From: Acutalibacteraceae bacterium
GTDB taxonomy: Bacteria > Bacillota > Clostridia > Oscillospirales > Acutalibacteraceae
Direction of reading: 5' to 3'
DNA length: 64,000 nucleotides
NCBI GenBank assembly: GCA_045592985.1
Contig: JAZNVU010000041.1
Span: 76,557 to 140,556, forward strand
Part shown: positions 45,637-62,892 of the stretch, piece by piece
How positions within the stretch are numbered: position 1 is the first letter of the stretch
How the letters are laid out: the number at the start of each line of letters is the position of its first letter
Position numbers and translations under genes: made by a program
The notes under the pieces: generated by a model
Seen by the model: the letters and a program-made list of their open reading frames with translations, nothing else
What the model was told of the DNA's origin: nothing
Databases searched by the model: none

Positions 45637-45670
45637 TAAAAAAGCGCTTCGGTTGTCCGAAGCGCTTTAA
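45634..45670. terminator. bidirectional terminator between convergent queT and the surface-protein gene
   Basis: AAAGCGCTTCGG-TTGT-CCGAAGCGCTTT (12 bp), flanked by an A-run and a T-run. Confidence 0.8.
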
Positions 45671-45685
45671 TTATATTATAGGAGA

Positions 45686-48600
45686 TTATTTCGCGAAAAC
45701 TTTCTTACCGGTGATAAGAAGTGCGCCGGCAGAGAGAATGATAACTGCGAGGATGATGATGGGGCTTACAGACGAATCTCCGGTAGGAGCAGAGTCAGTA
45801 GAAGCCGAACCGGTGTAACCTTTGAGGGTGATGGATGCATCATCAAAGTACATATCGCAGCCAACGGTAGTACCAATGCCAACGAACGGAGTGGTTGCAA
45901 CGAAGGTGTAGCTAACCTGCTGCCACTCGCCTTCTTTAAGGTCAGAATACTTAATAACAGTACCCATATTCTGAGCAGCAGAAATTCCGGTAAAGGAAGT
46001 CATGCTCATGAGCGAGATAACGCCGGTATCAACAGAGATAGCAGTGGGTTTTACCCAGAACTTCAAGGTATAGGTCTCACCTACATCAAGAGCATAGTCA
46101 TCGCTTCTCATAAGAGTGAAGGTTTTAACGCCTGCGGTTGCTCCGTTACGGAATACCGAGAAAGAACCATGACGGATGTTAGAAGAATCAAATCCTACAG
46201 CAGTGTTGGTGTACAAGGTGTAACCTGCGGCAATACCAAGCTGAACAACGCTGGCGGGGTAATTTTCGAAGTTTTCCTCGATTTTGCCGAGCTGCCACTT
46301 AGCGTGGAGAACAATAGGATCGGCACCGAATTTTGTATCGGTGAATTTGGTAGCAAAAGTATTATCAGTGTACCAACCGATGAACTTATAACCATTCTTC
46401 TTGGGTGTGGGGAGAACGATGGTATCACCCTCATCACCAGAAATTGCATTAACAGCCTTACCGCCATTTACGTTAAAGCGGATAGCAGAACCGTAAATGT
46501 TCATGTCATTTTCAGGACAACTAATAACAACATCGTCAATGTAAAGTGTTGCGTCACCGCTACAGCCGATAGCCATGTAGTTATCGTTAGCGGTAGCACC
46601 AGTAGCAAGAGTTGCATCGAACTCAATAACGCCCTCTGCCCAACCGTTGGTGTTATCACTATAAGCAACTGAACCAGTCTGCTGCTTATATGCTACCCAG
46701 GTACCGCCCTTATTAGAAAGGAATATATAGAATCTACCCTGAGTTTTGAAGTCTTCAACTTTATACTTGAATTTAACTACGTAACGAGCGCCTTCGTAAG
46801 CACGGATGACCTTGCCGGCATCCTGGAACATTGCACGAGCAATCTGCGTAGCACTCTTGTTGGTACCATATTCAAGGCTATGGCTGAGAACCTTATTGCC
46901 GTTTGCCTCAGTGATGATCTTATAACGGTCAGACTTACGGTCGATGTCGGTAATTGTGTAGTCTTCGTAGTCGATAACAACACCGTCGGTCTCCCACTTA
47001 GCAAACAAGGTAAGGCTGGTGGAAGGAGCAGAGTTAACATCGAGAGCTTTGTTAAAGTTGCGGTCAAGATACCATCCAACGAAGGTCTGGTTATCATACT
47101 CGGGATTCTCGGGCATGCCGATAATAGGCTGACCGGGGAATGCAACTATTTTGCCTACATTAGCATCGTACTCTTCAACATTTGTTCTGAAGCTAAGTTC
47201 AACAACGCCTGCTTTAAGATTCCATGCAGCATAAGCATTCATAATACCTGCAGGCATTATGGTAGAAGTTGTAAGATCGTAAGTTGTAGTAACAGCTTCT
47301 TCGCCTTCTCCGGTAGTAACATCATATTTCCAACCGACAAAATCGTATCCGTACTTTGTAGGTGCAGGAAGATCAGCAGGTTTTCTGCCGACTTCAACAG
47401 CGATGGATTCGCACTCGTCACCGCCATTGGATTCAAATACAATAATAGCATCCTCACCGGTGGTAGAATGGGTCTGAACACGAACATTATCGAAGAGGAC
47501 TGCGGTTGCAAATTCTTCAGGACAATTGGTGCTATTGCTCATACCAATACCGATGCTTGAGTAGGTCTCAGCGTCGGAAGTGGCAATGAAAGTATACTTT
47601 GCATGTGCCCAACCTTGTGCTGCATCGTCATCACGATAATCGAACTCGTCAATAACTGTGATAGTTTTTACAGCACCCTTACCATCAGTATTTACATAGT
47701 AAAGGTTAAGTTTTGTGGGGGTTTCACTATGCTCAACGAAATAGTCGAACTCAACTGTGTAGATACCGCCGTTTACCATGGCAAGCTGATCTGCACCGTT
47801 GTTAACAGTGAAATAGTGATGACCGTTCTTAGACTTAGAATGTGTAAGTTTGAAGAACTTATTGGTGTTGTCCTCGTTAGCAAGGATCTCACCACGGGTA
47901 ACGTAACCGTTACCGGTATTGTAGGTGTAATCGTTAGCGTCTACGCTCCACTCGAAGCCGTTGTTATCAACGTCTTCAAAGTCCATAACGTAATCTTCAA
48001 CAACTACCTGGGGAACGTAAGGCTTAATAACGATATCGTCAATATATACCTTACCTCTGTCGTAGTTACCGTCACCGACAGTGAAGAGAAGGTAAGGATA
48101 ACTGGTTACGTTTGCTGCGCTGAGAGTGAAGGAAAGGTTTCCAACAGCCCAATCATCGGTATAATCGAAGTAAGCAGTTGCAATAGATTGTTTGCTGTCC
48201 GAGTTACCGATACCTTCCTGTTTAGTGACATATGCGCTGATTTTTACGCCCTGCTCATAAGGCTGGGTACCCTTAGTAGCCATGTATCTGAAAGAAACGA
48301 TGTACTGGGTATCAGCAGCGCAGGTAACGCCTTTTCCGCTTCCGGGATAAGCCTCGATAGCCGTGTTAATGGTGTTCTTGCCACCTGCAAGCTGGTCGCC
48401 GAGAAGAACTTTGTTGTTGGCATCATGAGGATCGGCTACGATCTGGAATGCACCGAACTGATTGTTACCGAATTTGCCGTTGGGATCGTAAATACCGTTG
48501 GTGTTAGCATCGGTATAATCGAAGGTAGCAACAATACCGTCATACTTTGCGAACAAAGTAGTATCGTTGCCGGCAACGGTTACCTTGTTTGTGAAGTTGA

Positions 48601-48826
48601 TATCGTCATACCAACCGAGGAATGTTACGCCTTCGGTAGGTACAGTAGGTGCAGGAATTGCAGCACCTTTAGCGAGGTTGAGAGTGTAAACAACGCCGTT
48701 GTTATTCAATGTGTAATCAGTACCTGCAGCACTTGCAGTACCAACAAATGAAACCACACAAAGTGACAGCAGCATTGAGAGGACACAAACAACACTTATC
48801 GCCTTTTTGAAAGCACGAGTTTTCAT
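45686..48826 (-). CDS. large cell-surface protein with InlB-B (Listeria-Bacteroides, Flg_new) repeats alternating with CBM-like beta-sandwich modules
   Basis: 1046 aa. Sec signal (…FVGTASA/AG). Four repeats of the G(Y/F)xFxGWYxDxxF...L(F/H)AKW type. C-terminal SAPTGD, a hydrophobic helix and a KKVFAK tail. Confidence 0.8.
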   Translation of the reverse strand: MKTRAFKKAISVVCVLSMLLSLCVVSFVGTASAAGTDYTLNNNGVVYTLNLAKGAAIPAPTVPTEGVTFLGWYDDINFTNKVTVAGNDTTLFAKYDGIVATFDYTDANTNGIYDPNGKFGNNQFGAFQIVADPHDANNKVLLGDQLAGGKNTINTAIEAYPGSGKGVTCAADTQYIVSFRYMATKGTQPYEQGVKISAYVTKQEGIGNSDSKQSIATAYFDYTDDWAVGNLSFTLSAANVTSYPYLLFTVGDGNYDRGKVYIDDIVIKPYVPQVVVEDYVMDFEDVDNNGFEWSVDANDYTYNTGNGYVTRGEILANEDNTNKFFKLTHSKSKNGHHYFTVNNGADQLAMVNGGIYTVEFDYFVEHSETPTKLNLYYVNTDGKGAVKTITVIDEFDYRDDDAAQGWAHAKYTFIATSDAETYSSIGIGMSNSTNCPEEFATAVLFDNVRVQTHSTTGEDAIIVFESNGGDECESIAVEVGRKPADLPAPTKYGYDFVGWKYDVTTGEGEEAVTTTYDLTTSTIMPAGIMNAYAAWNLKAGVVELSFRTNVEEYDANVGKIVAFPGQPIIGMPENPEYDNQTFVGWYLDRNFNKALDVNSAPSTSLTLFAKWETDGVVIDYEDYTITDIDRKSDRYKIITEANGNKVLSHSLEYGTNKSATQIARAMFQDAGKVIRAYEGARYVVKFKYKVEDFKTQGRFYIFLSNKGGTWVAYKQQTGSVAYSDNTNGWAEGVIEFDATLATGATANDNYMAIGCSGDATLYIDDVVISCPENDMNIYGSAIRFNVNGGKAVNAISGDEGDTIVLPTPKKNGYKFIGWYTDNTFATKFTDTKFGADPIVLHAKWQLGKIEENFENYPASVVQLGIAAGYTLYTNTAVGFDSSNIRHGSFSVFRNGATAGVKTFTLMRSDDYALDVGETYTLKFWVKPTAISVDTGVISLMSMTSFTGISAAQNMGTVIKYSDLKEGEWQQVSYTFVATTPFVGIGTTVGCDMYFDDASITLKGYTGSASTDSAPTGDSSVSPIIILAVIILSAGALLITGKKVFAK

Positions 48827-48914: not shown

Positions 48915-50309
48915 TTATTTATACTTGTCAATAAGGTCCTGAATCATCTGGTTAGCCTTAGCAACAGCATCATCAACTACATTGTCAACTGCGTCAAGTT
49001 CGGTTTTAACGCCGGTGGGAGTAGTCTGTTTGGCACCGCCGTTGAAGACTTTAGAACCGGTAGAACCTACGAAGGTTCCGCAAACGTCGTCAAAGTTGAA
49101 GTACTTATCATCAGCCTCAGCTTTGGTAAGTTCGTAGTAGAAGTTACCTGCTTTGTTACTGATGAAGGTATCTTCAAGGTCGTAGTTAGCAGGGTCAAGC
49201 CAGTAGCGCAAGAAGTAACCTGCAGCATCGGCATGAGGAGCGTTAGCTACGATACCATACATACGGTAGACAGAAGATATCTTACCCTTAGAACCGTCCT
49301 CGAGTGCGGGGAGGTATGTATAACCGATATCGTTAAGGTTCATATCTTTGAAGTAACCGGTTTTCTTAAGACCGAAAACACCGATGATGCAGATACCAGC
49401 TTTGCCGTTTATGAAGTCGGTCTGGTCGGCGCAAAGAAGGTTCTGCTCTCTTGCATCGTTGTACCACTGATAGGTCATAAGAAGTTCTTTCTTGTTAACA
49501 CCACTGGAGAAAGTAGCGGTCTTATAGTCATACATACAGAAGGATACACCTGCGGAGTCGCCGAGAACCTCAACGTCTACATAACCGCCGGAGAAGTCGG
49601 GGCCAAGAGCCTTAACGTCCTTCATAACCTTAAGCAAGGTGTTCCAGTTCCAGTTACCATCCTCATAATACTGTTCAGGAGTGGTAAAACCGTTATCCTT
49701 GAAGAGAGACTTGTTGTAGTAAACAAGGTTGGAACCGGACCAGGGAGAACCGATAGTGTTTACGAGATAAACGTGACCGTCGATAGTACCGGTTTCAAGC
49801 ATGGATTTGTGCCAGATAGGCTCGTTAAGGTTGACGGTAGAAACAACGTCAATAGGAGCTGCGATCTGGAGAGTGAGGGGGAAGTTATCTTTACCCTCAT
49901 TGGATTTGAAAGCATCGGGGATATCACCTGCAGCCATAGAGGTGATAATCTTCTCAACATACTGACCCTGAGCAACGGTGAAGATTTCAACGTTGAGGCC
50001 GGTATCGTTATAGAAGTTTGCAAGGGGAACTGCACCCTCGGTCTGATAGTGGTCGATCCAGGTTGCATAACGAACAGTCTGACCCTTGATGCTATCAGAA
50101 ATGGTTGCATAAGGATCAAAATCTTCCCAACCTGCAACGTTAGAAGGGGTGTTGGGAGTAACACTAGGATCGTCTTCTTCAACGACCTTGTTGCTCTGCG
50201 AGCTGGTTGCGGAATCAGTGCTTGCACTTCCGCCACAAGCGGAGAGAGCGCATACTAAAATTGCAAAAGCAAAAATAGCACAGATGATTCTCTTTAAATT
50301 GGTTTTCAT
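48915..50309 (-). CDS. ABC transporter substrate-binding lipoprotein (CUT1 family)
   Basis: 464 aa. Lipobox LSAC-GG, Ser/Thr-rich linker and SBP family-1-like body. Confidence 0.85.
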   Translation of the reverse strand: MKTNLKRIICAIFAFAILVCALSACGGSASTDSATSSQSNKVVEEDDPSVTPNTPSNVAGWEDFDPYATISDSIKGQTVRYATWIDHYQTEGAVPLANFYNDTGLNVEIFTVAQGQYVEKIITSMAAGDIPDAFKSNEGKDNFPLTLQIAAPIDVVSTVNLNEPIWHKSMLETGTIDGHVYLVNTIGSPWSGSNLVYYNKSLFKDNGFTTPEQYYEDGNWNWNTLLKVMKDVKALGPDFSGGYVDVEVLGDSAGVSFCMYDYKTATFSSGVNKKELLMTYQWYNDAREQNLLCADQTDFINGKAGICIIGVFGLKKTGYFKDMNLNDIGYTYLPALEDGSKGKISSVYRMYGIVANAPHADAAGYFLRYWLDPANYDLEDTFISNKAGNFYYELTKAEADDKYFNFDDVCGTFVGSTGSKVFNGGAKQTTPTGVKTELDAVDNVVDDAVAKANQMIQDLIDKYK

Positions 50310-50432: not shown

Positions 50433-50461
50433 ATAATACCAAAACTTTGCGCAAGTTTCAA
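50433..50461 (-). promoter_or_regulatory. candidate internal promoter for the binding-protein and surface-protein genes
   Basis: Minus strand shows TTGAAA, 17 nt, TGG-TATTAT (extended -10), leaving a leader of about 115 nt. Confidence 0.5.
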
Positions 50462-50605: not shown

Positions 50606-50638
50606 CTCCCCTTTCGGCGTACCGAAAGGGGAGTTTTT
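50606..50638 (+). terminator. 12-bp GC-rich hairpin whose U-tract is on the plus strand only
   Basis: CTCCCCTTTCGG-CGTA-CCGAAAGGGGAG followed by TTTTT on the plus strand. Read on the minus strand (the direction of all neighbouring genes) it is followed by AAAACC. Confidence 0.5.
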
Positions 50639-50642
50639 GATT

Positions 50643-51662
50643 TTAACCTGTAATACCTACGCGGTCGATACTCTTAACAAACTGTTTTTGGAGTATCATA
50701 TACATTATCAGAACCGGAACTATAAACATGACGCAAGCCGCCATAACGACCGCTATGGTCTCGGGGCTACTGGGACCGAACTGTGCTTTCATGATAGCAA
50801 GCATGGCTTCCGGTTCGGTTATACGGTCAAGTTTAACCGCCAACGGCCAACTGTCGGCATACAGGTACATGTTAGCAAGATAGTAGTCGTTCCAATGCCA
50901 GATGATTGAGAAAACGGTAACTGTCATGATAACAACGCCTGAAGAAGGAAGTGCTATACGAATATAGGTCTTGACGGGACCTGCGCCGTCTATCCATGCT
51001 GCTTCCTCAAGTTCTTTAGGCAAGCCTTTGAAGAACTGTACATAGATATAAATAATGATACCTGCTCTGATGCCTACGCCGAACAGTGCCGGGAGGTAGA
51101 AAGTCCATACCGAGTTAAGGACGTTCGGTCGTATATCAACACCTGTAAAGTCATACACAAGGCCAAGCACACCCAAAAGGTCGAGCTTGGTGTAAGTGGT
51201 GACGATAGGAATCATCATCATCTGCGACGGAACAAGAATGAGCAAGAACATGAAGAAAGTAAGTATCTTCTTTTCTTTAAACTCAAATCTTGCAAGACCG
51301 TAAGCAGCAACCGAGCAACTGATAATCTGGATTGCAGCAGCTATAAGTTCAAACACAACCGTGTTAAGAAGCGCTCCTGTGTAGTTAACCAATTTAGTTG
51401 CCATTGAATAATGTTCAAAAGTGATATCCGGTGTTATCCAGACAACCGAAGGGTCGAGGAACGAGTTTCTTGTTCTTATCGAACTACTGAGCATGTAGAA
51501 AATTGGGTACAAAATTATGTATCCGATTGTGATAAGAACAACATAGCGCATAAGCGAAGTGAAAACACTATTTGCTTTAAGCACGGCTTTGTAGCGTGCT
51601 TCGGAACTGGAGTTTTTAACCTTGTGATAAAGGTTTTTTACGTTCTCTATACCTTTAACCAT
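50643..51662 (-). CDS. carbohydrate ABC transporter permease (MalG-like)
   Basis: 339 aa, 6 TM helices, EAA loop LEEAAWIDGAGPVKTYIRIALP. Confidence 0.88.
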   Translation of the reverse strand: MVKGIENVKNLYHKVKNSSSEARYKAVLKANSVFTSLMRYVVLITIGYIILYPIFYMLSSSIRTRNSFLDPSVVWITPDITFEHYSMATKLVNYTGALLNTVVFELIAAAIQIISCSVAAYGLARFEFKEKKILTFFMFLLILVPSQMMMIPIVTTYTKLDLLGVLGLVYDFTGVDIRPNVLNSVWTFYLPALFGVGIRAGIIIYIYVQFFKGLPKELEEAAWIDGAGPVKTYIRIALPSSGVVIMTVTVFSIIWHWNDYYLANMYLYADSWPLAVKLDRITEPEAMLAIMKAQFGPSSPETIAVVMAACVMFIVPVLIMYMILQKQFVKSIDRVGITG

Positions 51663-52633
51663 TAGCTTCTACCTCCTGTGTCCCAGCGCTTAAGGAATAC
51701 CTTAGAATAAATTAACATTATAACAGCCATTATTACACCAACAACCAAGAAATAGAGCCAAAGCATTGCCGATGCGATACCATAGGTTGAAATGTTACCC
51801 ATGAAGACGTATGCACGTTCCATAACAAGATTGGTCTTATCTGTTATAAGTTCGACCATTGTGAAAATGAGAACAAGAATCAAGGTTCTTGCCAACATGG
51901 GAAGTGTGATAAACCAGAACTCTTCCCACTTTGTAGCACCCTCAACCTTGGAAACCTCATAGAGAGAATCCGGAATGGACTGCATACCTGATATAAACAG
52001 AACTATTTGTATACCACAGTTCCAAACAAGGTTGAAAATGTCGTTAAGTATACTGCTGAACACTTCACCTATCTGGGCAGGCAAGGACATGAAAGCCATA
52101 ATATCTTCAACGTTTACCATGTTAGAGGCAAAAGAATCCGAAACGCCCGATGAGGAAAGTTCGCTGCTGGTTGTATTGAAAAGATGCTGAATAACAACAC
52201 CCGATGCAATAATAACCGGCAGGAAGTACAGCGCTCTGAAGAAAAGTCTTCCTTTAAACTTCTGGTTGAGAAGCAGGGCGAGAATAAGACTCAAAATAAC
52301 GATTACCAAAACCGACGGGAGCATTGACGATAAAGTAAGGCTCATGTTTTTGGTAAATTGAGGGTCTTGTCTCAATGCATATTGAAAATTTGCCAGGCCT
52401 GCAAACTTGTATTTGAATTCACCCATGAAACTTACATCACAAAATGAATAGTACAGGGATTTTACTATCGGAACAAGGAAGAAAACCAAAAGTCCTATCT
52501 CCCAATGGAGAACGAACATACGTCCGTATGTACTTTTAAGTGATTCGATACTTTTGTGCTTCTTCTGTTTCTTTTGTTTTACGACTACAGGCGCATCCTG
52601 AACGGCCGTATCTTTTATTTCTTCTGTTGACAT
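51662..52633 (-). CDS. sugar ABC transporter permease (MalF-like)
   Basis: 323 aa. EAA-like loop LYEVSKVEGATKWEEFWFITLP. The stop overlaps the next start. Confidence 0.88.
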   Translation of the reverse strand: MSTEEIKDTAVQDAPVVVKQKKQKKHKSIESLKSTYGRMFVLHWEIGLLVFFLVPIVKSLYYSFCDVSFMGEFKYKFAGLANFQYALRQDPQFTKNMSLTLSSMLPSVLVIVILSLILALLLNQKFKGRLFFRALYFLPVIIASGVVIQHLFNTTSSELSSSGVSDSFASNMVNVEDIMAFMSLPAQIGEVFSSILNDIFNLVWNCGIQIVLFISGMQSIPDSLYEVSKVEGATKWEEFWFITLPMLARTLILVLIFTMVELITDKTNLVMERAYVFMGNISTYGIASAMLWLYFLVVGVIMAVIMLIYSKVFLKRWDTGGRS

Positions 52634-52648
52634 TCAGTTTACGCCTCC

Positions 52649-54940
52649 TTACTTAGATATGTAGCCACGTGCAGGAACCTCAACACCGTCAACCGTTACG
52701 GCTTGGTTGCCATAGTTGACGTACACGGTAACACCGTTGTCGAAGTTTGTCATACGCACGTTATCATTAATAATCTTGTGGTCTGAAATTCTTGCACCCT
52801 TTACCGAATAGAAGAAATCTTTATACTCGGCAACATCCTCAATGATATTATCCTTAACACCGGTCTCCAAAGTGTCATTCCAATAGAGCGAACCATAGAA
52901 GACATTCTGTGCGGAAGAAATGAGGTTAGTACTGAACTGACCAATAAGTGAATAACTAAGTCCTGCTCCGGTCTCAACCGCATTAAGCAAAGTGGTCTCT
53001 GCGTTGGTTGCAAGATTAAGCGAGGTTACCGACATTGAAACGTTGCCTTTGAATACAATCTGATAGAAAGGAACGTCTACGGTATAAGACCTGAACTTAG
53101 ACGACTTTGTGGGGATATCGTAAACATGGTCGCACAAGCCTGCTGCAAAAGCATTAGCGTCGCTTCCTGCTACGTTATAACCGGCTTCCTTGAAATCATT
53201 TAAGACGTTTATGGCCTGTTTTTCAAAGTTGGAAGCCGAGAAATATGCTTTATCGCTATAATCTGAGTAGACTATGCTTGTAAGGCTGTCAAGGCTGACA
53301 CCGCCCAGATTCCATCCGGCAGCTGCCTTTCTGATATTATCACCTATCTCATCAAACTGACTTCTCGATACAAGATAATGAGGTGCGAAAATAGTACTGC
53401 TGGAACGGAAAGCAACATCATAATAATACTGTGCTGTTGAATCTCCGGTAGCGGATTTTGCTTTATCAAGCAAGGTTGAGACACCACCGCCGTTGGAGTT
53501 GAATCTTATCATGTCAAAATTCATGAAAAGGTCTATTCCGTTATTGGCACAGTAATCGGTAAGGCTTGTCATCGCCTTTTTGTTGCCGAACTTACTGTTT
53601 ATCTTATAGTTGCCTGCAATAGTACCGATATCATTACCGTTCTGACCGAAGCCGATAAGGTTGGCGTTGATGCTCTCCCCTGTTACTTCCTTAAGGTCAG
53701 AAATGATTGACTGAGCCTGTTCAAGAGTAGTGGCAACCAGCATATCGTCACTGGGAATACCGAAGATGAACTTTTTAGTCTCGATACCGCCATAAAGTTT
53801 GACATTAAGAAGTTTTTCTTTATCGGTCTTTTTGAGGAGTTCTTTTTCCTCAAGGTACTCACGGTACTTTTCAGCCATTCCCACATAGTCGGCTTTTTCG
53901 CCATAGAGGGGTTTAAAGCTGATAGATATCTTACCGGGAGCAAAATAATCGGAATAAAGCGTATACTGTCTCGGAGCAGAGGTGAAGAGAGCCTGAACAG
54001 TCTTTTGCTGACCTCTTATAATAAACTCCGGTGAAACGTAGGAGTATCCGGTAACTTTCCAACCAAGTGTGGCATTAAGGTACGCATACTCGGCACCTTC
54101 GGTGATGATGGCACATGCACCGCGTTCACCGTTGACAGCGCCGTATACAGGCATTCTTACCGATTCGGTGGTGGTTTCCGCAGTGGGTTTTTCAACGTTA
54201 GCGTCTCCACCGTACACCTTTTCGGTTATAGTTTCATAACTTGCATCTTCAGGGTCAGAAGACATTGAAGGAACTATCAAAGAACCCGAACCCGAAGGCA
54301 TGAACAGATAGTGGTCATCTTTGTTTGCCTGGTCGTTGGAAACCGAACAGAACAACGGTGCTACCATGATACTTGTAATACGGTACTCATTACCGTTTTC
54401 CTCGATACGGTCAACATCAACCGAGATGTCAACACCGTCATCGGTAAGAACAAACGAAACAGGTACTGTAAAACTATAGTCAGGGAAATAGCACATCATT
54501 TCGAGACCATTATCAATTTTTGTAAGCGAACATGTGCCCTTACCTATGGAACGTGCAGACGCTGCGATAGGCAACGGCGTTCCGTCCTTAAGTGTCTGTG
54601 CGTTATGGCACTTTATAAGTACAGGAGACTCAAGATACGGGTGGTTGGTCAACGGAAGACCGTCTGCATCATATCTTTCGTCAAGAGCATCCTGCGGAAC
54701 ATAACTCCATTCACAGTCCTCAATCTTATCGTAAAGGATAACACGTTTTTTAGAAGCATCCCAAATGAGGCTGTAGCGAGCATTTTCGGCTACGCAGGTA
54801 GTTTTAAGAGTGCTTATCTCTTGTGGTTGGTTGTATTTCGGAACCATGAAAGTATCGGTACCGCATCCTGCAAGAAGGAGAAGCACTAAGCAAAGCATCA
54901 AGCTCATAGCGGCAGAAACCGCACGTTTTATGTTATTCAT
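52649..54940 (-). CDS. 763-aa orphan lipoprotein (resembles proteins annotated DUF5696; possible glycan-active enzyme)
   Basis: Lipobox LLAGC-GTD. No motif of a glycoside hydrolase family I can recognise. The DUF5696 attribution comes from my memory of similar SBP-permease-permease-YIP1-DUF5696 neighbourhoods and has not been verified. Confidence 0.5.
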   Translation of the reverse strand: MNNIKRAVSAAMSLMLCLVLLLLAGCGTDTFMVPKYNQPQEISTLKTTCVAENARYSLIWDASKKRVILYDKIEDCEWSYVPQDALDERYDADGLPLTNHPYLESPVLIKCHNAQTLKDGTPLPIAASARSIGKGTCSLTKIDNGLEMMCYFPDYSFTVPVSFVLTDDGVDISVDVDRIEENGNEYRITSIMVAPLFCSVSNDQANKDDHYLFMPSGSGSLIVPSMSSDPEDASYETITEKVYGGDANVEKPTAETTTESVRMPVYGAVNGERGACAIITEGAEYAYLNATLGWKVTGYSYVSPEFIIRGQQKTVQALFTSAPRQYTLYSDYFAPGKISISFKPLYGEKADYVGMAEKYREYLEEKELLKKTDKEKLLNVKLYGGIETKKFIFGIPSDDMLVATTLEQAQSIISDLKEVTGESINANLIGFGQNGNDIGTIAGNYKINSKFGNKKAMTSLTDYCANNGIDLFMNFDMIRFNSNGGGVSTLLDKAKSATGDSTAQYYYDVAFRSSSTIFAPHYLVSRSQFDEIGDNIRKAAAGWNLGGVSLDSLTSIVYSDYSDKAYFSASNFEKQAINVLNDFKEAGYNVAGSDANAFAAGLCDHVYDIPTKSSKFRSYTVDVPFYQIVFKGNVSMSVTSLNLATNAETTLLNAVETGAGLSYSLIGQFSTNLISSAQNVFYGSLYWNDTLETGVKDNIIEDVAEYKDFFYSVKGARISDHKIINDNVRMTNFDNGVTVYVNYGNQAVTVDGVEVPARGYISK

Positions 54941-54955
54941 AAAATCTCCTCCTTA

Positions 54956-57211
54956 TCAGAATAATTTAACAATTTCAGTGAAGATGGTGACTAAGAAGCC
55001 CCATGTTTGCTGCAAAAGTATAATTACTGTTACAAGCATGAATACAACAATTGCACATCCGAAGATGGTCAGCAATGATGTTGCCAAGAACTTACCGAAG
55101 CTGTAATCGTGTACTATCATGGAACCTACAATGAGAAGTAGTAGTGTGTACATGGTACATACTGTGGTAAGAACGGTAAGGAACGCTGCTTCTTCAGGAA
55201 CGAGAACGTTGGATACTACTACGTAAACAATGCTTCCAAAGAGTGAGGGAACCAAGCTGTAGCAGATAACGGTGAGTATTTCTTTAATCTTACCTTTACC
55301 GCCGAAGAGTGTACATACTGCCCAGTTGGTAATAGTCCAAAGAATAACAAGACCAACTGTTTTGAGAAGAATCAGCAAAGCATTGTAACTTGCGGGATCG
55401 AAGTATACGAATGCAAAGCCGCCCATTGTGGTCTCAAATACGGTAAATACATAGTAGAGAGCAATAATGACAATACAAATCGGTACAGATGTAAGACCTT
55501 TTTCCTTAATTTCGCGGAAGTTATCAAACGGGTGGGTTACAATGGTTGTTGCCATATGCAACTTTTCGTTCTTAACAAGTCTCATGCTGTGCTTGGTTGA
55601 ATAAACAAGCAAGAAAATAATGAAACCAACAAGTGCAACCGCTACGATCATAATCCAGGTAAAGTTTTCACGGATAAGTTCGGTACGGATGCTTCCGAAA
55701 GCAAGACTGTAGGTTTCACGGTCATAGCCTTGTTTTGCAAGTTCAATGGCTTTTTGGAAGTTTTCAGAAGCTTCTGCTTCGTCGGTACAAGCCTTACCTC
55801 TTACATAGTAAGCCTTGGCAAGTCCGGCATATGCAACCTGGCTGTTACCGTCAAGTGTGAGAACCTCGTTCCACTCGTCCATAGCCTCTTCATAGTCACC
55901 AACGACCGTCTTGGCCTGAGCGCTCTTGACTAGTTTTCCGTAATCGGTTATGCGGAATACGGTGAACGAACCAAACTGACCGTTGTTATCGGAAACTACG
56001 ATGTCATCATTGTTGACATTGTAACCGATAGCACTGATGGACATGAACGTGCCGTCCTGCTTACCGTTTTTAGCACCACCGCCGAACGCCGACAGCAAGG
56101 TACATTCACTATCATAGATAAAGATTCTGCCGTAGGTAGAATCGGCAACGTGAATGAATCCGGCTTTGTCAACCGCAACACTGTTGAGGTTCTGGTACTG
56201 AATGGTATTCTTATAGTCATAGCCGATGCCTTCGTCAACAAAGTTTGTTTCGTCGGAACCAACAAGAACATTACCACCACCCGGATTAAGTCGTTTAACC
56301 TGAGCGTTCTGGGTGAGTTCGCCGGTATTACCGGTAGCGGTATAAACAAATCCTTGGTCGTCAACCCAAAGGTCGGAGAATGTATACGGAAGCGAGGAGA
56401 CCATGGCACTGCGCTGTTCATTGGTAACAAAAAGTCGGTTCCAAAGGGTAACGATAGCCTGAGTAAGTGTTGCAGGAACATCGTTGGCTCCGTAGAAACC
56501 AAGGAAGTTATTTTCGCCTTCATTGGCTTCATCATCAGGTGCGTAAAGAATAGCACCGTAGTAGGAACCGTCACTTAGTATATATATGTAGCCTTCGTTA
56601 TCAACAGCTACCTTTTTGGGACGGTAGTTAAAGCCGTCGGGAATAAGGTTGCCGTTATTTTCATCCTTATTAGGGAGAACATAGTTTTTAATAAGAACGG
56701 CTTCGCCATCAGAGTCTTCACCTTCATCAGCGGTGAATTTCATAACACGTCCGTTATTTGTGTCGGCAATGTAGATGTTTTCGTCTTTGTCAACGAAAAC
56801 GCCCTGTGCACCATAGAAATAATAGGAGTTACGGTCTTCATCTCTGACGTAGTTAATTTTTTGTTTAACCTCATAATTCTCATCAAGAATGTACAAGGTG
56901 GACAAACCGCCGTCAAGAAGGTAAGTAAGTCCGCTTTTTGAAGTGTGAACGTCGGTGAATCTTGCATCACTGGAACATTCAAGGTCATGAGCGTTAAATA
57001 CCTTATATACCTCATACATAGGTTTGCTGTAAACTGCTTTTTTCGTTTTTCCGGTGAACTCGTACCAATAAGTATAGGTGTCATAACCCACCTCATCGGT
57101 CTTTTCGGAAACAGCGGCAACTGAGAAAACAGGAATCAGCATAAGCACTGCAAGTGCCATCATGCAGGCACGAACGAGGAACTTGCGAACATTAAAGTTT
57201 TTCATATCCAT
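54956..57211 (-). CDS. NHL-repeat beta-propeller / TPR-like / Yip1-domain membrane protein
   Basis: 751 aa. Signal or anchor helix, then about six NHL-type blades (GVFVDKDENIYIADTNNGRVMKF, SVAVDKAGFIHVADSTYGRIFIYD and others). A TPR-like helical segment follows (GDYEEAMDEWNEVLTLDGNSQVAYAGLAKAYY), then five C-terminal TM helices of Yip1 type. Confidence 0.7.
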   Translation of the reverse strand: MDMKNFNVRKFLVRACMMALAVLMLIPVFSVAAVSEKTDEVGYDTYTYWYEFTGKTKKAVYSKPMYEVYKVFNAHDLECSSDARFTDVHTSKSGLTYLLDGGLSTLYILDENYEVKQKINYVRDEDRNSYYFYGAQGVFVDKDENIYIADTNNGRVMKFTADEGEDSDGEAVLIKNYVLPNKDENNGNLIPDGFNYRPKKVAVDNEGYIYILSDGSYYGAILYAPDDEANEGENNFLGFYGANDVPATLTQAIVTLWNRLFVTNEQRSAMVSSLPYTFSDLWVDDQGFVYTATGNTGELTQNAQVKRLNPGGGNVLVGSDETNFVDEGIGYDYKNTIQYQNLNSVAVDKAGFIHVADSTYGRIFIYDSECTLLSAFGGGAKNGKQDGTFMSISAIGYNVNNDDIVVSDNNGQFGSFTVFRITDYGKLVKSAQAKTVVGDYEEAMDEWNEVLTLDGNSQVAYAGLAKAYYVRGKACTDEAEASENFQKAIELAKQGYDRETYSLAFGSIRTELIRENFTWIMIVAVALVGFIIFLLVYSTKHSMRLVKNEKLHMATTIVTHPFDNFREIKEKGLTSVPICIVIIALYYVFTVFETTMGGFAFVYFDPASYNALLILLKTVGLVILWTITNWAVCTLFGGKGKIKEILTVICYSLVPSLFGSIVYVVVSNVLVPEEAAFLTVLTTVCTMYTLLLLIVGSMIVHDYSFGKFLATSLLTIFGCAIVVFMLVTVIILLQQTWGFLVTIFTEIVKLF

Positions 57212-57222
57212 AAGTCCCCCCT

Positions 57223-58179
57223 TTATTCCTTAATACCGGCGCTGCTCATGGATTCCATAACGTTACTCTGAGAAATCAGATAAACGAGAATCGGAGGAAT
57301 CATAAGTATGCAGGTAACAGCCATCGCACTACCGGAACGAGCAACACCGCCAGCGGTAATCTGCGACATGATGGTAGGCAAGGTTTTGAGTGTTTCGCTG
57401 AAAATTGTACCCGAGGGAACGCTTGCCCAAACATCACGGAATGTGAAGAGGGTGAGCGTCAACCACATCGGTTTAACTATTGGCATTACTATCGTCCAGA
57501 ATATTCTGAAATATCCTGCACCGTCAATCTTAGCGGCTTCAAGCAATGCATTGGGCAATGCGCCTTCCATGTACTGTTTCATAAGGAAAACACCCATGGT
57601 AGAAGCAAAATGCGGCAGAATGTAAACCCAGTATGTATCAATAATGTTGGTCCATGTGAAGATGAGGTACTGGGGAACTGCCAAAGTATATCCGTTGAAA
57701 AGAAGTGAAAACTGGATGATATAGAATATAACACCCTTGTACTTTATTTTGGATTTACAAAGCACAAACGCAGCCATAGATGCAACCATAACATAAAGGA
57801 ATGTGGTGGTGATAGTTGAGAACAAACTGTTGAATATGTAACGCGAAAGCGGAACACGCAGGTTTGAAAGCAACTCAGGAATAGCTGTGTAGTTGGCTAT
57901 TGTGGGACGATGAACGAAGAATCTCGGAGGGAAAATAAGAATTTCATCGAGAGGCTTCAAGGATGTACATATACAATATATAAGGGGCAGGATAGAAATA
58001 CAGCCTGCGGCGATTATAAAGGCAAAGTAGAAAAAGTTACCTACTTTAGAACGCGTAAAGCGTTTTGCCTGCATTTGAGAAGAACGTCTTCTCTTTGGGG
58101 CTTTCATATCGTTTACCGAGTCGCGCAAGGCTTTTGCACCACTGGGCAATATGAGAACCTCTTCCTTTTTTCTGAACAT
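57223..58179 (-). CDS. carbohydrate ABC transporter permease (MalG-like)
   Basis: 318 aa. EAA loop LLEAAKIDGAGYFRIFWTIVMP. Confidence 0.88.
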   Translation of the reverse strand: MFRKKEEVLILPSGAKALRDSVNDMKAPKRRRSSQMQAKRFTRSKVGNFFYFAFIIAAGCISILPLIYCICTSLKPLDEILIFPPRFFVHRPTIANYTAIPELLSNLRVPLSRYIFNSLFSTITTTFLYVMVASMAAFVLCKSKIKYKGVIFYIIQFSLLFNGYTLAVPQYLIFTWTNIIDTYWVYILPHFASTMGVFLMKQYMEGALPNALLEAAKIDGAGYFRIFWTIVMPIVKPMWLTLTLFTFRDVWASVPSGTIFSETLKTLPTIMSQITAGGVARSGSAMAVTCILMIPPILVYLISQSNVMESMSSAGIKE

Positions 58180-58192
58180 TTACTATCCCACC

Positions 58193-59110
58193 TCACTTTC
58201 CTGTCATATTGAGCAGTTTACCAACAACCAGTCGGAATACTACCATCATAAGGAACAAAATGACCGCAACTGCCGAAGCGTAACCTAATTCGTATCGTAC
58301 GGTACCAAGGTCCTGCATGTGCGATACTATTGTATCTGCCGCATAGCTGACACTTGGGAAACCTGCAAGTTGAATTGCGATACCGCTTATTGAGAATGCC
58401 GAAGAAATCTGCATAACCGCACTGAACAACAACATGTGTTTCATGGTAGGAAGTGTGATGTACCAGAGCTCCTGCCAACGGTTACGGATTCCGTCTATCG
58501 AACCGGCTTCGTAAAGTTCGTTGTTAACGTTCTGAAGACCGGAAATGTTGGAGAGGAAGGAAACACCCATACTAGACCAGAGCTGAACTGCTATAACGAT
58601 GGGCTTTATGTATTCTGCGGTACTGAGCCAGGTAACCGGCTCGGTAATGAGACCTAATGACAGCAATGCGCTGTTGACGTAACCGTAGCTATCGCTACTG
58701 AAGGCAACCTGCCAGATGAAAACAACGTTACCGGCAAGAGCAGGAGCATAGAACATGAACGAAAGCAAGGTACGAACGATAGGTGAAAACTCATTAATAA
58801 ACCATGCAAGAACGAATGCAAGCAAGAAACCTGCAGGTCCGCAAATGATAGCGAAGAGAAGTGTGTTCTTGAAAACTACGGGGAAAACGTCGTCTTCAAC
58901 AAACATTCTGAGGTAGTTACCAAGTCCCGCAAAGGATGGTGCATTAATCATATCATAGTTAGTAAAACTAAGTGCGATTGATGCAAGAATCGGCAATACA
59001 AGGAACAGGAAGAAGAACAGGAAGAAGGGGGCTAACATTATGTATGAAGGAAGGTTTTCTTCCCATATGGCTCTTCTTTTTATCTTTTTGAAATCAACTT
59101 GTTTTTCCAT
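58193..59110 (-). CDS. sugar ABC transporter permease (MalF-like)
   Basis: 305 aa. EAA loop LYEAGSIDGIRNRWQELWYITLP. Confidence 0.88.
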   Translation of the reverse strand: MEKQVDFKKIKRRAIWEENLPSYIMLAPFFLFFFLFLVLPILASIALSFTNYDMINAPSFAGLGNYLRMFVEDDVFPVVFKNTLLFAIICGPAGFLLAFVLAWFINEFSPIVRTLLSFMFYAPALAGNVVFIWQVAFSSDSYGYVNSALLSLGLITEPVTWLSTAEYIKPIVIAVQLWSSMGVSFLSNISGLQNVNNELYEAGSIDGIRNRWQELWYITLPTMKHMLLFSAVMQISSAFSISGIAIQLAGFPSVSYAADTIVSHMQDLGTVRYELGYASAVAVILFLMMVVFRLVVGKLLNMTGK

Positions 59111-59131: not shown

Positions 59132-62100
59132 TTATTTGGCATACTCGGCGATTTTGCGGAGAATCTCGTTATCCGCTATCTCGCCCCATTTGAGCATTGC
59201 GTCTTTTTCATTGTCTTCGCCGTTAATAACTGCCCAGTAAGCCTGGTCAACAGCACGTGATACGTAGTAACCGCCGGGAACCTCAGGAAGTTCCTCTACC
59301 CAAGACCACTGCTCAAGAAGAATGTCGAGGTCATCAGCATTCCACGAGTAGGATTCAAAGGCCTGCTTATTAGCGGTAGCGGTACGCGAAACGGTACCGA
59401 GAATAGATTCAACGTTATTGTTGTATCTGAGCTGAGTTTCAGCGCTGGTCCACCAGCAGAGGAACTGCCATGCTGCATCCTTGTTTTCGGAAGGAGCAAC
59501 AACGCTACATCCGGTACCCGAACCACCGATGGAACGGTTGATGGAAGCAATTGTTCCATCCTCATTATAGGTTGGAATGCCGGGGATGGGAGCTATTGTC
59601 CAACGTCCCTGAATTTCGGGAGCTGCCTGATTAAGCTGAGTGTAAACAGTGTAAGCCGAAACACCGAGAGGCATTACGCCGGTACGGAAACGGTTGTAGA
59701 AGTCGGCCTGCTTTTCAATGCCGTACTTAGTGTACATATCGGTCCACTGAGTAAATGCAGCGATTGCCTCGCTCGAAGTCATGGTGGTCATGTTGCGGTC
59801 CTCATTGTAAAGGGGTACCTGATTCTGAGTGAGGAATGTCGGGAAAAGGTTAAGGCTACCCATACCTGCGTTGACCGAAACGGTCGATGCTATCTTGGTA
59901 TAAGGAATGTACGCCTTCATATTGTTTCTCTGGAGGATTGTGGCAGCCTCAAGGTAGTTGTCCCAAGTCCAGCCCAAGCCACCGTTGGCTTGTTTAGGAT
60001 CTGCAATACCGAGGTCGTTAAACACGTCGGTACGGTAATACATTATATAGAAGCTCTGCGTATCGGGCAGTGCGAACAAATGCTCACCGTCAGCATCGGT
60101 ATACCAATAAGGAACATCGGCAGATGCCTGGAAACGTTCAAGAACAGTCTCGTAGTCGAGCATATAGTTCTCACCGTCATCAACGGTTGAGTACTTATCA
60201 CCTTTGAAGTTGGTCAGGTCATAAAGTGCGCCACGCATACCAAGGTTAACAGGGTCAGTACGTGACAAGTGGAGTGAAAGGTCGGGGAAGTTGCCCGCAA
60301 GAATACCCTTAATAAGCGATGCGTCAACTATTTCAAGTTCAACACTGATACCGGTCTCGACGCTGAATGATTCCTGAATAAGGTTACTAAGCACCTGACA
60401 CTGGTCACGTCCCCAGTTAACCCAGATTCTTACTTTGCCCTGGTCGCCTACCTCAGCGGCACCGCCAATGGTGCTGAAGTTATCGCTGAACGAGAGGCAG
60501 AAACGCTGGAACTCGAACGCAAAGGTCTCGAAGAAACCTGCGTGATTATTGGTAAAGCCTTTGTCAGGAGAAGCAAACTGCATCTGGTCGACACTTAAAG
60601 GCATTGTCTTCATTTCATAAAGCCAAGAACAAACGGTGGTGTAGTTAGAGTAAAAGTCGGACAGGTAGTTCTGTGCGGTGTACGGATTATCGTACATACT
60701 CATAAGAACACGTGCCATATTGTTAAGAGCTGATATGTATTTGTTGCTGCGGTTACCCGAAAGAGCCTTCATGTCGTTAGCAAGCACAGTAATGTCTTCA
60801 TGAGTGCTGTAAAGGGTATCCTGAAGGTCAGCAATCTGTTTGAAAAGGTTGTAGTCACGGTTAGGGTCAGGAGAGTCGCCGGTGATCATAACGATTTCAA
60901 TGTATTTATCACCGATAGCGTCAACAATCTCGCTAAGTCTTTTATAGAACTCAGAGGTCTCACCCAAAGTGACGGTAAGAGTGAAGGTGTGCTTGCCTTC
61001 TTCGAGGTAGAAGAGGTACGGAGTATCTCCCTCACCAAATTCCCAGAAGGTCCAGCTTGTGCAGTACATGAAACTAAGCGATTCACACTCTTTAAACGGT
61101 GTTTTGCCGTCAATGGTGAGAGCACGATAAGAATAACCGTCAATAACGGCTGCCTGCTTATAGTTCATACCCAATTTATAGAGACCCGACTTAGGAACAT
61201 CGACAACCCAAGTGATTGCGTCGCCGGGAACCTGCCAGTTTGTACTACCTATATAATTAAGAATAGTTTTAACAGGGTTTTGAGGAGTGACATCAGCAGA
61301 ACTATTATCGGTCTTGGCAACGAGAGAGTTGGTCGACTTAATCCAAGCGTCCTCGCCCTCTATCTCAAGTGCTTTGCCGTCATAAACAGTCTTATCGGAA
61401 TGGGATGCAGCATACTCGCCGTAAGTAATGGCATCTTCGGGTGCTTTGAAGGTGATGCTTGCAAGTACAAAAGGCTCATATACCGATTTAACAGTAATGG
61501 TATGGGTACCTGCAGTAAGAACTACCTTATAAGGAGCAGCCTCAACACCTGATTTATCGGTAACATATGCAGTACTGAACTGATCATAGCATACCTGCTC
61601 GGGAGTGAGCTGGTTTTCGAGTGAGTCTTCACGGATATCTCCTGCAGGCTTGCTCAAAGAAGCACCATTATTGACAAAATTACGGGGCAACAAGAAAGAA
61701 TCAAGGCCTGCGTAAAGATAAGGGTCCTCTCCCTCGGGAATATCAGCTATATCAAAAATAATGCCGAGTTCTACGGGAGTTGTAGAAGTCTTATCGTCAA
61801 TAGTATCAGTAGTGCCCTTGGTTTTGACAAGAGGAAGATAGTTGAACTGAATATTATAAAATGCCGTTTCAGGCACGGTAAACTCGTAGGTTACGGTACC
61901 CTGTTGTTTATATTCATTGTTATCCTTCCACACAAGAACTTCCATGTTTTCTTTTTGATCGGCAACCTTGTCGCTCAAAACATCCATGTTCTCTTTGGAA
62001 ATAACAGTTTCGGCATCCGCATCGCATTCCTTATAGTTCGCTCCAAGGATAACAATATCCTCTTTGGCGTAAGGAATACCCTCGTTTTCCTTCAAGTACC

Positions 62101-62254
62101 TATCGTACTCATCGTAGGTCGAGATGTTGGATGAGGACGATGTCGCATCAGAAGCGCCTACGCTCTCGGCAGAGGCAGGTACTACGGCAAAAAGCGACAT
62201 AGATACGGCAGAAGCCAAAGCTGTGGCCAGCAGTCGTCTCATGACAAATTTCAT
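59132..62254 (-). CDS. giant extracellular solute-binding protein: about 590-aa CBM-like N-terminal extension fused to a CUT1-type SBP domain
   Basis: About 1040 aa. The start is placed at ATG 62254 (MKFVMRRLL) after a GAAGGTGAAG RBS. Sec signal VVPASA/ES with no lipobox Cys. Beta-sandwich-like modules (YEFTVPETAFYNIQFNYLPL, WVVDVPKSGLYKLGMNYKQ). C-terminal SBP (KVRIWVNWGRDQCQVL...). Confidence 0.8.
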   Translation of the reverse strand: MKFVMRRLLATALASAVSMSLFAVVPASAESVGASDATSSSSNISTYDEYDRYLKENEGIPYAKEDIVILGANYKECDADAETVISKENMDVLSDKVADQKENMEVLVWKDNNEYKQQGTVTYEFTVPETAFYNIQFNYLPLVKTKGTTDTIDDKTSTTPVELGIIFDIADIPEGEDPYLYAGLDSFLLPRNFVNNGASLSKPAGDIREDSLENQLTPEQVCYDQFSTAYVTDKSGVEAAPYKVVLTAGTHTITVKSVYEPFVLASITFKAPEDAITYGEYAASHSDKTVYDGKALEIEGEDAWIKSTNSLVAKTDNSSADVTPQNPVKTILNYIGSTNWQVPGDAITWVVDVPKSGLYKLGMNYKQAAVIDGYSYRALTIDGKTPFKECESLSFMYCTSWTFWEFGEGDTPYLFYLEEGKHTFTLTVTLGETSEFYKRLSEIVDAIGDKYIEIVMITGDSPDPNRDYNLFKQIADLQDTLYSTHEDITVLANDMKALSGNRSNKYISALNNMARVLMSMYDNPYTAQNYLSDFYSNYTTVCSWLYEMKTMPLSVDQMQFASPDKGFTNNHAGFFETFAFEFQRFCLSFSDNFSTIGGAAEVGDQGKVRIWVNWGRDQCQVLSNLIQESFSVETGISVELEIVDASLIKGILAGNFPDLSLHLSRTDPVNLGMRGALYDLTNFKGDKYSTVDDGENYMLDYETVLERFQASADVPYWYTDADGEHLFALPDTQSFYIMYYRTDVFNDLGIADPKQANGGLGWTWDNYLEAATILQRNNMKAYIPYTKIASTVSVNAGMGSLNLFPTFLTQNQVPLYNEDRNMTTMTSSEAIAAFTQWTDMYTKYGIEKQADFYNRFRTGVMPLGVSAYTVYTQLNQAAPEIQGRWTIAPIPGIPTYNEDGTIASINRSIGGSGTGCSVVAPSENKDAAWQFLCWWTSAETQLRYNNNVESILGTVSRTATANKQAFESYSWNADDLDILLEQWSWVEELPEVPGGYYVSRAVDQAYWAVINGEDNEKDAMLKWGEIADNEILRKIAEYAK

Positions 62255-62398
62255 TTCTTCACCTTCAAAAAAATATTCCGCGGTCTTTATCCCCGACCAC
62301 AAAGGGTGCTGATTAAAGTCGCTACTCATGGTCGACGAAAAGACCTCAAGCGGTCAGAAGTCGTCAACACACCCAGTTTGCATACTTCACTACCATGT

Positions 62399-62427
62399 AT
62401 TATCTAATAAAATCAAGATTTTGTCAA
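62399..62427 (-). promoter_or_regulatory. candidate main promoter of the 62254-50643 operon
   Basis: Minus strand shows TTGACA, 17 nt, GATAAT. A second TTGACA lies 13 nt upstream. The leader is about 135 nt. Confidence 0.55.
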
Positions 62428-62770: not shown

Positions 62771-62892
62771 ATCTGCTCAAGTCTAAGCGGTGTTTTTCTA
62801 CATATAAAAAGCGATTTTGGGGTTGATTCCCCACTACGGTTGGTTCATATTAAGGTTAGAAACACCAAGGTTTACCGAAAGGAATGAAACAT

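Follow-up and report, generated by a model that had tools for sequence, protein, structure and literature searches.

A Yip1 membrane protein with an extracellular propeller as a putative organising subunit of a twin carbohydrate-importer cassette in Clostridia

Bacterial membrane proteins of the Yip1 family have been linked to ATP-binding cassette (ABC) transporters through YknW of the YknWXYZ systems of Bacillus subtilis and B. amyloliquefaciens, while carbohydrate importers of the CUT1 class (TC 3.A.1.1) have been described without any such partner. Here, we analyse a gene that joins the two, found in a 64,000-nucleotide stretch of an Acutalibacteraceae genome (contig JAZNVU010000041.1, positions 76,557 to 140,556; hereafter the window, to which all coordinates refer). 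The gene (54956..57211, minus strand; open reading frame and translation, Pfam and an AlphaFold2 model) encodes a 751-residue protein combining an NHL propeller, a TPR region and a Yip1 membrane domain, and lies in the middle of a seven-gene cassette with two pairs of CUT1-type permeases. In our preferred reading, to which we would give nearly an even chance, the protein is a dedicated, probably non-catalytic organising membrane subunit of this twin importer cassette. An earlier reading of the window, made from its letters alone (the original prediction), had pointed to an accessory membrane subunit, and its individual claims are taken up below where the results bear on them.

Among prokaryotic Yip1 proteins, YknW is the only studied example that was found. 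It is required for the B. subtilis YknXYZ ABC transporter and modulates its assembly (PMC4887032, PMC4338810), and the earlier statement that bacterial members of the family are functionally uncharacterised is thus not wholly correct. Like the protein considered here, YknW is a polytopic Yip1-family protein encoded in an ABC-transporter operon, the likeness being one of family and operon rather than of direct alignment; the Yip1 profile PF04893 was also detected in the B. subtilis control genome. Unlike it, YknW is small and has neither extracellular propeller nor TPR. The partners differ as well, that of YknW being a MacB-type exporter with a membrane-fusion protein, which protects against the SDP toxin, whereas the present protein accompanies a CUT1 importer. 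The locus therefore shares with the YknW type a Yip1 protein inside an ABC operon but not the MacB-type exporter, and because the transporter type differs the protein is not classified as a YknW orthologue; by analogy, it may work in a YknW-like way.

The cassette resembles described CUT1 importers in its MalF/MalG- and UgpA/UgpE-like permeases, its SBP_bac_1 binding proteins, an MsmX/MsmK-type ATPase encoded elsewhere and adjoining glycoside hydrolases. Described systems of this class comprise one permease pair and one lipoprotein binding protein with no extra membrane subunit, whereas this cassette has two pairs in fixed order, an anchor-less binding protein of about 1000 residues, the propeller/Yip1 protein and a DUF5696 protein. 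Outside transport, the closest counterpart of the ectodomain is found in PknD of Mycobacterium tuberculosis, likewise a membrane-tethered, extracytoplasmic six-bladed NHL propeller; there, however, a single membrane helix leads to a cytoplasmic Ser/Thr kinase, whereas the protein described here has no output domain and a Yip1 bundle as its membrane part. Eukaryotic Yip1/YIPF proteins of endoplasmic reticulum–Golgi traffic share the PF04893 domain, five helices, a cytoplasmic N-terminal segment and an extracytoplasmic C-terminus, but they act with Rab/Ypt GTPases, carry no propeller/TPR ectodomain and have no link to ABC transporters. To our knowledge, bacteria have no Rab/Ypt GTPases.

Literature searches returned nothing on the protein, its cassette or DUF5696, and a Yip1-type accessory ABC subunit that bears an extracellular propeller and TPR and is attached to binding-protein-dependent importers would be novel. 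Among the main degraders of fibre are the Gram-positive Clostridia of the gut, whose known glycan loci are portrayed as simple: a single binding protein with two permeases and a few enzymes. The cassette, far more elaborate and of fixed order, was found in roughly one in five of the Clostridia genomes sampled, often with multiple copies per genome, beside different glycosidase families. Three of its parts are special and all are unstudied, namely the giant binding protein without a lipid anchor, the GH129-like DUF5696 protein and the protein that carries the propeller and the Yip1 domain. Knowing what the last of these does would show how cells that lack an outer membrane arrange large binding proteins and enzymes on their surface, and would supply the prokaryotic Yip1 proteins with a function.

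Conservation and composition of the cassette

Proteins of the same architecture are numerous. At least 681 are present in a database clustered at 90% identity, in which "YIP1 family protein [Clostridia bacterium]" is the sole name that any source supplies, and representatives of 50%-identity clusters number 2066 at E ≤ 1e-10 and 892 at E ≤ 1e-30, nearly all of about 700 residues. Across a sample of 399 genomes of the class Clostridia, the family occurs in 84 genomes and in 49 of 217 genera; the closest named relatives of the protein come from metagenome-assembled genomes of Acutalibacteraceae. Several genomes hold three or more cassettes, and the genome under study holds one.

The immediate neighbours of the gene are nearly constant. 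Among 29 loci from other genomes, viewed with 1.5-kb flanks, a homologue of permease A2 lies directly upstream in 27, the exceptions being a contig start (L008) and a decayed copy (L028), and a DUF5696 gene lies directly downstream, again in 27, with a contig end (L015) and a 3.2-kb insertion (L009) accounting for the other two. DUF5696 co-occurs with the family in 82 of the 84 genomes, and both exceptions are contig-end cases. The cassette of giant binding protein, permeases A1 and A2, propeller/Yip1 protein, DUF5696 protein and permeases B1 and B2 was recovered in each of 26 regions of 20 kb, and a gene for a small lipoprotein binding protein often comes next. A strict order parser passed 22 of these regions; of the four others, one reaches a contig end, one contains the insertion, one is a fragmented copy (L044) and one has a displaced A2 gene (L059). 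Since the arrangement recurs in every related locus examined, it is not due to chance.

In the regions examined, the propeller/Yip1 protein was found only at the centre of the cassette, between A2 and DUF5696, and this constant seat makes it probable that it is a missing accessory part of complex-carbohydrate capture in gut Clostridia. Permeases adjoin every locus with sufficient flanks. The observation that was to count against a transporter-dedicated subunit, namely that the gene would be found equally often outside ABC contexts, is thus not made, and the gene can be regarded as a dedicated component of ABC loci. All cassette proteins also co-diverge in mirror-tree comparisons (r 0.59–0.86); an attempt to pick out one partner of the propeller/Yip1 protein in this way was dropped, as the partial correlations were too weak to name one.

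In the window, all seven genes are read from the minus strand. The first (59132..62329) encodes the giant binding protein of about 1040–1065 residues, with a long N-terminal region resembling carbohydrate-binding modules (CBMs), an SBP_bac_1 domain at residues 659–966 and a signal peptide that has no lipobox. It is followed by the CUT1-type permeases A1 (58193..59110; 305 residues, UgpA/MalF-like) and A2 (57223..58179; 318 residues, UgpE/MalG-like), both with BPD_transp_1 domains, and then by the propeller/Yip1 gene. Downstream lie the gene for the DUF5696 lipoprotein (52649..54940; 763 residues, PF18952 at E 1e-132, LLAGC lipobox, predicted GH129-like fold) and those for the CUT1-type permeases B1 (51662..52633; 323 residues) and B2 (50643..51662; 339 residues). 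Permease pairs are thus encoded on both sides of the gene, in agreement with its earlier placement between two permease pairs. The tight spacing noted earlier was likewise recovered: 11 nt (aggggggactt) separate the A2 stop codon from the propeller/Yip1 gene and 15 nt (taaggaggagatttt) separate the latter from the DUF5696 start, each gap carrying a Shine-Dalgarno site.

An ATPase gene is absent from the locus, and the genome encodes one MalK/MsmX-type ATPase (OB_MalK) on another contig (C55). An ATPase encoded away from the locus is normal for CUT1 sugar importers of Firmicutes. The components that define this importer class, a MalF/MalG-type permease pair, an SBP_bac_1 binding protein and a MalK/MsmX-type ATPase, here outside the locus, are accordingly all present.

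The original prediction had described the giant binding protein as lacking a lipid anchor, which is true of the window and of 22 of 23 cassettes, the single exception being a doubtful lipobox. Lipoboxes are also infrequent in the DUF5696 proteins (2/23), which like the giant binding proteins bear signal peptides or N-terminal membrane anchors instead; of 11 small binding proteins, 9 have a lipobox. An N-terminal membrane anchor of uncleaved appearance was seen on the giant binding proteins of loci L043, L050, L051 and L053.

Beyond the cassette, the flanking genes vary, and include those for AraC regulators or kinase/response-regulator pairs, GH10 with GH43 enzymes (L044), a GH130 enzyme (L004) and, in the window, a GH16 enzyme whose gene at 62884 is transcribed divergently from the cassette. 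No conserved gene outside the cassette hints at a substrate, regulators and glycosidase families both differing from locus to locus. The variety of flanking enzymes makes the cassette look like a general chassis that is paired with different enzymes. At L059 (G138:C8:12001-32000), the propeller/Yip1 gene directly follows A1, and the A2 homologue lies about 1.6 kb beyond B2. L044 (G257:C1:733001-753000) is decayed, with the genes for the giant binding protein, the propeller/Yip1 protein, the DUF5696 protein and the B permeases fragmented or truncated; it adjoins intact GH10 and GH43-CBM6 genes, and the same genome has at least two further intact cassettes.

Architecture and membrane topology of the protein

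The reading frame, the signal or anchor helix, the roughly six NHL blades and the TPR stretch that had been read from the sequence all find support in Pfam, in the AlphaFold2 model, in Foldseek comparisons and in matches to solved structures. The model, built on a 46-sequence alignment, has a mean predicted local distance difference test (pLDDT) score of 82.1. It consists of a helix at residues 6–29, propeller strands at 46–421, four TPR helices at 423–494, a continuous helix at 498–541, two short helices and finally five long membrane helices at 576–750.

The N-terminal segment (residues 1–34; 57110..57211) has the form of a signal peptide or anchor helix, with a basic n-region, a hydrophobic core at residues 16–34 that forms a hydropathy peak, and a possible SVAA/VS site at which it would be cleaved. 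The propeller (residues 40–421; 55949..57094) is recognised by its NHL repeat (PF01436, residues 132–159, 36.2 bits against a cut-off of 20), by its closed six-bladed fold in the model and by its conserved blade positions. Searched against solved structures, it matches the extracellular NHL sensor domain of PknD (1rwi, E 7.5e-7) and eukaryotic NHL domains; by Foldseek, the top ranks are taken by the NHL domains of TRIM71, TRIM2, Thin and Brat, with target TM-scores of about 0.75, while PknD (1rwl) reaches 0.72.

Two TPR motifs follow (residues 422–497; 55721..55948), forming paired-helix repeats. The TPR_11 match at residues 438–469 remains below threshold (19.7 against 26.8 bits), but residues 437–494 match consensus-TPR structures at E 3e-17, and homologues of the protein give TPR_16 and TPR_19 matches. 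The next segment (residues 498–541; 55589..55720) is a stalk helix running, according to hydropathy and the model, into a transmembrane helix at residues 518–536, designated TM0. It leads to a basic linker with a conserved HPF..F motif (residues 542–575; 55487..55588), delimited by its Lys/Arg content and conservation and predicted to be cytoplasmic, and to the five-helix Yip1 domain (residues 576–751; 54959..55486). Pfam assigns PF04893 to residues 557–725 at E 3.2e-17 and 63.4 bits, well above the gathering cut-off of 28.6; the match covers profile positions 3–171 of 173 and scores 66.8 bits in the genome-wide search. The Yip1 part of the model found no match in the PDB by Foldseek.

The assignment of the C-terminal membrane part to the Yip1 type therefore stands, but the earlier count of five helices does not, as hydropathy gives six. 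The five helices of the Yip1 domain span residues 573–731, and TM0 is the additional one, lying outside the Pfam match. The loop after it (residues 537–575) contains seven Lys/Arg residues, which by the positive-inside rule places the propeller and the TPR region outside the cell. TM0 would then cross the membrane inwards, leaving the N-terminus of the Yip1 domain in the cytoplasm and its C-terminus outside, so that five Yip1 helices are preceded by a cytoplasmic segment, as judged from hydropathy and the model with sidedness taken from the same rule. This topology requires a helix such as TM0, because the propeller is external while the Yip1 domain begins in the cytoplasm.

Conservation, assessed in relatives below 50% identity with a threshold of 0.85, is unevenly distributed along the protein. 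The conserved residues of the propeller are canonical structural NHL positions, the per-blade Asp/Thr being kept in five of six blades (D100, D150, T293, D357 and D408) while the aspartate of the remaining blade, D213, falls below the threshold. The stalk and TM0 form the least conserved segment (0.36 for TM0 against 0.50 overall), and the best-conserved part of the entire protein is the pair of Yip1 helices TM2 and TM3. Conserved positions include H560, P561 and F565 of the linker and, in the Yip1 domain, a set of polar, charged and Trp residues (N610, N629, W630, E674, Q734, Q735 and E746); the presence of conserved polar residues within the helices suggests specific intramembrane contacts.

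One segment of the propeller departs from the regular fold. A conserved insert at residues 243–275 (window 56387-56485, minus strand) is modelled as helical with pLDDT below 50, and its family consensus in the 46-sequence alignment is amphipathic (LW.RLF.T.E.R ... LPY). Such an element might serve in docking and become ordered upon binding.

In about 30 of some 95 loci listed, that is, in about a third, the protein is encoded by two adjacent genes. The first specifies a signal peptide, propeller, TPR region, C-terminal membrane helix and short basic tail; the second specifies a Yip1 protein of 207–241 residues that starts with an HPFDGF-type motif, so that the break falls exactly in the cytoplasmic linker. 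Both forms may occur in one genome, as in G040, which has two fused loci (L037 and L038) and a split one (L056). That one gene in some lineages corresponds to two neighbouring genes in others argues that the propeller–TPR–anchor part and the Yip1 part work together, and since the split ectodomain protein already possesses an anchor helix of its own, the Yip1 domain must be more than an anchor. A search for informative fusions with a permease gave none: the longer homologues (786–1030 residues) have N-terminal extensions that lack a permease domain and contain at most extra NHL repeats.

Proposed role and alternative explanations

An organising subunit could operate as follows. The Yip1 bundle would pack against the membrane domains of the permeases, much as YknW associates with YknXYZ, and the stalk-mounted TPR region and NHL propeller would form a protein- or glycan-binding platform above the membrane. 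This platform would keep the giant binding protein, which has no lipid anchor, or the GH129-like DUF5696 protein, or both, beside the two transporters. Once the giant binding protein had caught a glycan, processing would follow and the importers would receive the products, with a shared ATPase supplied from elsewhere in the genome. The original prediction had suggested a dock for the giant binding protein, and its missing lipid anchor fits such a role. Pure tethering is insufficient, however, as the following cases indicate.

Several observations weigh against an organising role. Loci L050, L051 and L053 keep the propeller and Yip1 genes even though their giant binding protein and DUF5696 protein are self-anchored, and simple tethering consequently cannot be the whole function. 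Locus L004 (FIZI01000044.1) encodes the propeller/Yip1 protein, DUF5696, B1, B2 and a binding protein in the absence of the giant binding protein and of permease pair A, and has upstream instead a 996-residue Laminin_G_3 protein and a GH130 enzyme; it is the only locus of this kind that was seen. Partial correlations are weak once the shared phylogeny of the cassette has been removed, at 0.44 between the propeller and DUF5696, 0.28 between the propeller and the giant binding protein, and 0.17 or less between the Yip1 helices and any partner. Finally, the partner of YknW is a MacB-type exporter and not a type I importer, which renders the analogy a loose one.

A bolder extension, possible but doubtful in our estimation, treats the seven-gene cassette as a single multi-subunit machine with which monoderm bacteria capture and import glycans, playing the part that the Sus apparatus plays in Bacteroidota, with the propeller/Yip1 protein as its hub. 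The Yip1 bundle would then bridge both ABC importers in the membrane, with the CBM-bearing giant binding protein and the GH129-like DUF5696 protein held above them by the propeller and TPR region. If this were true, it would be the first defined molecular role of a prokaryotic Yip1 domain in nutrient uptake.

The most serious alternative, which we nevertheless regard as unlikely, is that the propeller itself handles the substrate, either binding glycan in the manner of a lectin or acting on the polysaccharide as an enzyme, for example a lyase, esterase or lactonase, with the Yip1 domain no more than a robust anchor. The propeller diverges fast (30% mean identity), and covariation among the three extracellular proteins of the cassette goes somewhat beyond that with the permeases, as would be expected under adaptation to one substrate; some homologues give weak Pfam matches to propellers of the SMP-30/gluconolactonase type (PF08450), and a virginiamycin B lyase ranks 45th in the fold comparison. 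The best 25 matches in that comparison, however, are non-enzymatic NHL domains, the nearest being binding domains, and invariance falls on the structural Asp/Thr and Gly of each blade, with no obvious catalytic constellation, which speaks against an enzyme. The notion of a mere anchor fares no better: one helix would suffice for anchoring and the split forms have one, yet the adjacent Yip1 gene is always kept, and it is TM2 and TM3 of the Yip1 domain, rather than any part of the ectodomain, that are conserved best.

Less probable still is an extracellular sensor, in which the propeller would detect a glycan or a loaded binding protein and the Yip1 domain would relay the signal to the transporter or to AraC or two-component regulators. 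The likeness of the propeller to the PknD sensor domain (1rwi, 1rwl) and the histidine kinase with AraC-type response regulator, or the AraC regulators, that adjoin several related cassettes are in keeping with this idea. Against it, the protein has no cytoplasmic output domain, its cytoplasmic parts amounting to the linker of about 35 residues and short loops, and regulators lie near the cassette in only 5 of 20 regions, the locus in the window having no regulator gene.

It is very improbable that the Yip1 bundle itself transports or inserts, as a channel, a scramblase-like element or a factor for the assembly or insertion of the secreted cassette proteins, with the propeller and TPR region as an extracellular chaperone platform: N629, Q734, Q735, E746 and the cytoplasmic HPF..F motif are indeed kept down to about 30% identity, and YknW alters the oligomeric state of YknX (PMC4338810), but no Yip1 protein is known to have an energising module or transport activity, the cassette already has two complete permease pairs, and simple helix packing fits the data equally well.

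Neighbouring genes and transcription signals

Profile and model comparisons make DUF5696, the constant downstream neighbour, a distant relative of the GH129 glycosidases, with a modelled fold like theirs. When a profile built from 51 DUF5696 proteins was searched against the PDB, it matched the GH129-like 3,6-anhydro-D-galactosidase 5opq (E 1.3e-13) and NagBb (E 4e-5). An AlphaFold2 model (pLDDT 89.7) compared by Foldseek led to the same two proteins, 5opq at E 9e-33 and NagBb (5wzr) at 6e-26, followed by GH101, GH36 and GH31 structures, and contains the N-terminal beta-sandwich, (beta/alpha)8 barrel and C-terminal beta domain that accompany the homology to GH129. Residues D560 and E656 are nearly invariant in DUF5696; the sequence alignments to GH129 end before the catalytic region, where enzymes of that family have an Asp nucleophile and a Glu acid/base in the barrel.

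DUF5696 also occurs in 27 genomes that lack the propeller/Yip1 family, mostly as a short form of about 560–600 residues that matches only profile positions of approximately 190–612. In four of four loci inspected (L062–L065, in G103, G387, G375 and G164), this short form stands alone, with neither a propeller/Yip1 gene nor permeases nearby.

Two further genes of the minus strand follow the cassette in the window. An ordinary lipoprotein binding protein of 464 residues with an LSAC lipobox (48915..50309) probably serves permease pair B. Beyond it, a surface protein of 1046 residues (45686-48826) carries four Flg_new (Listeria-Bacteroides) repeats, CBM-like modules and a C-terminal hydrophobic anchor; such a protein is present at the end of the cassette in the closest relatives (L001 and L002) and not in distant cassettes.

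The best promoter-like site of the region (62399..62427, minus strand), with 11 of 12 consensus positions matched, lies upstream of the giant binding protein gene, and a second one, TG-extended, precedes the small binding protein gene (50433-50461); both are identified by consensus match only. A 12-bp G+C-rich hairpin directly follows the stop codon of permease B2 (50606-50633). Together, this hairpin and the second promoter-like site suggest that the last two genes may be transcribed as a unit of their own, apart from the seven-gene core. A terminator-like hairpin lies after the surface protein gene (45641-45668).

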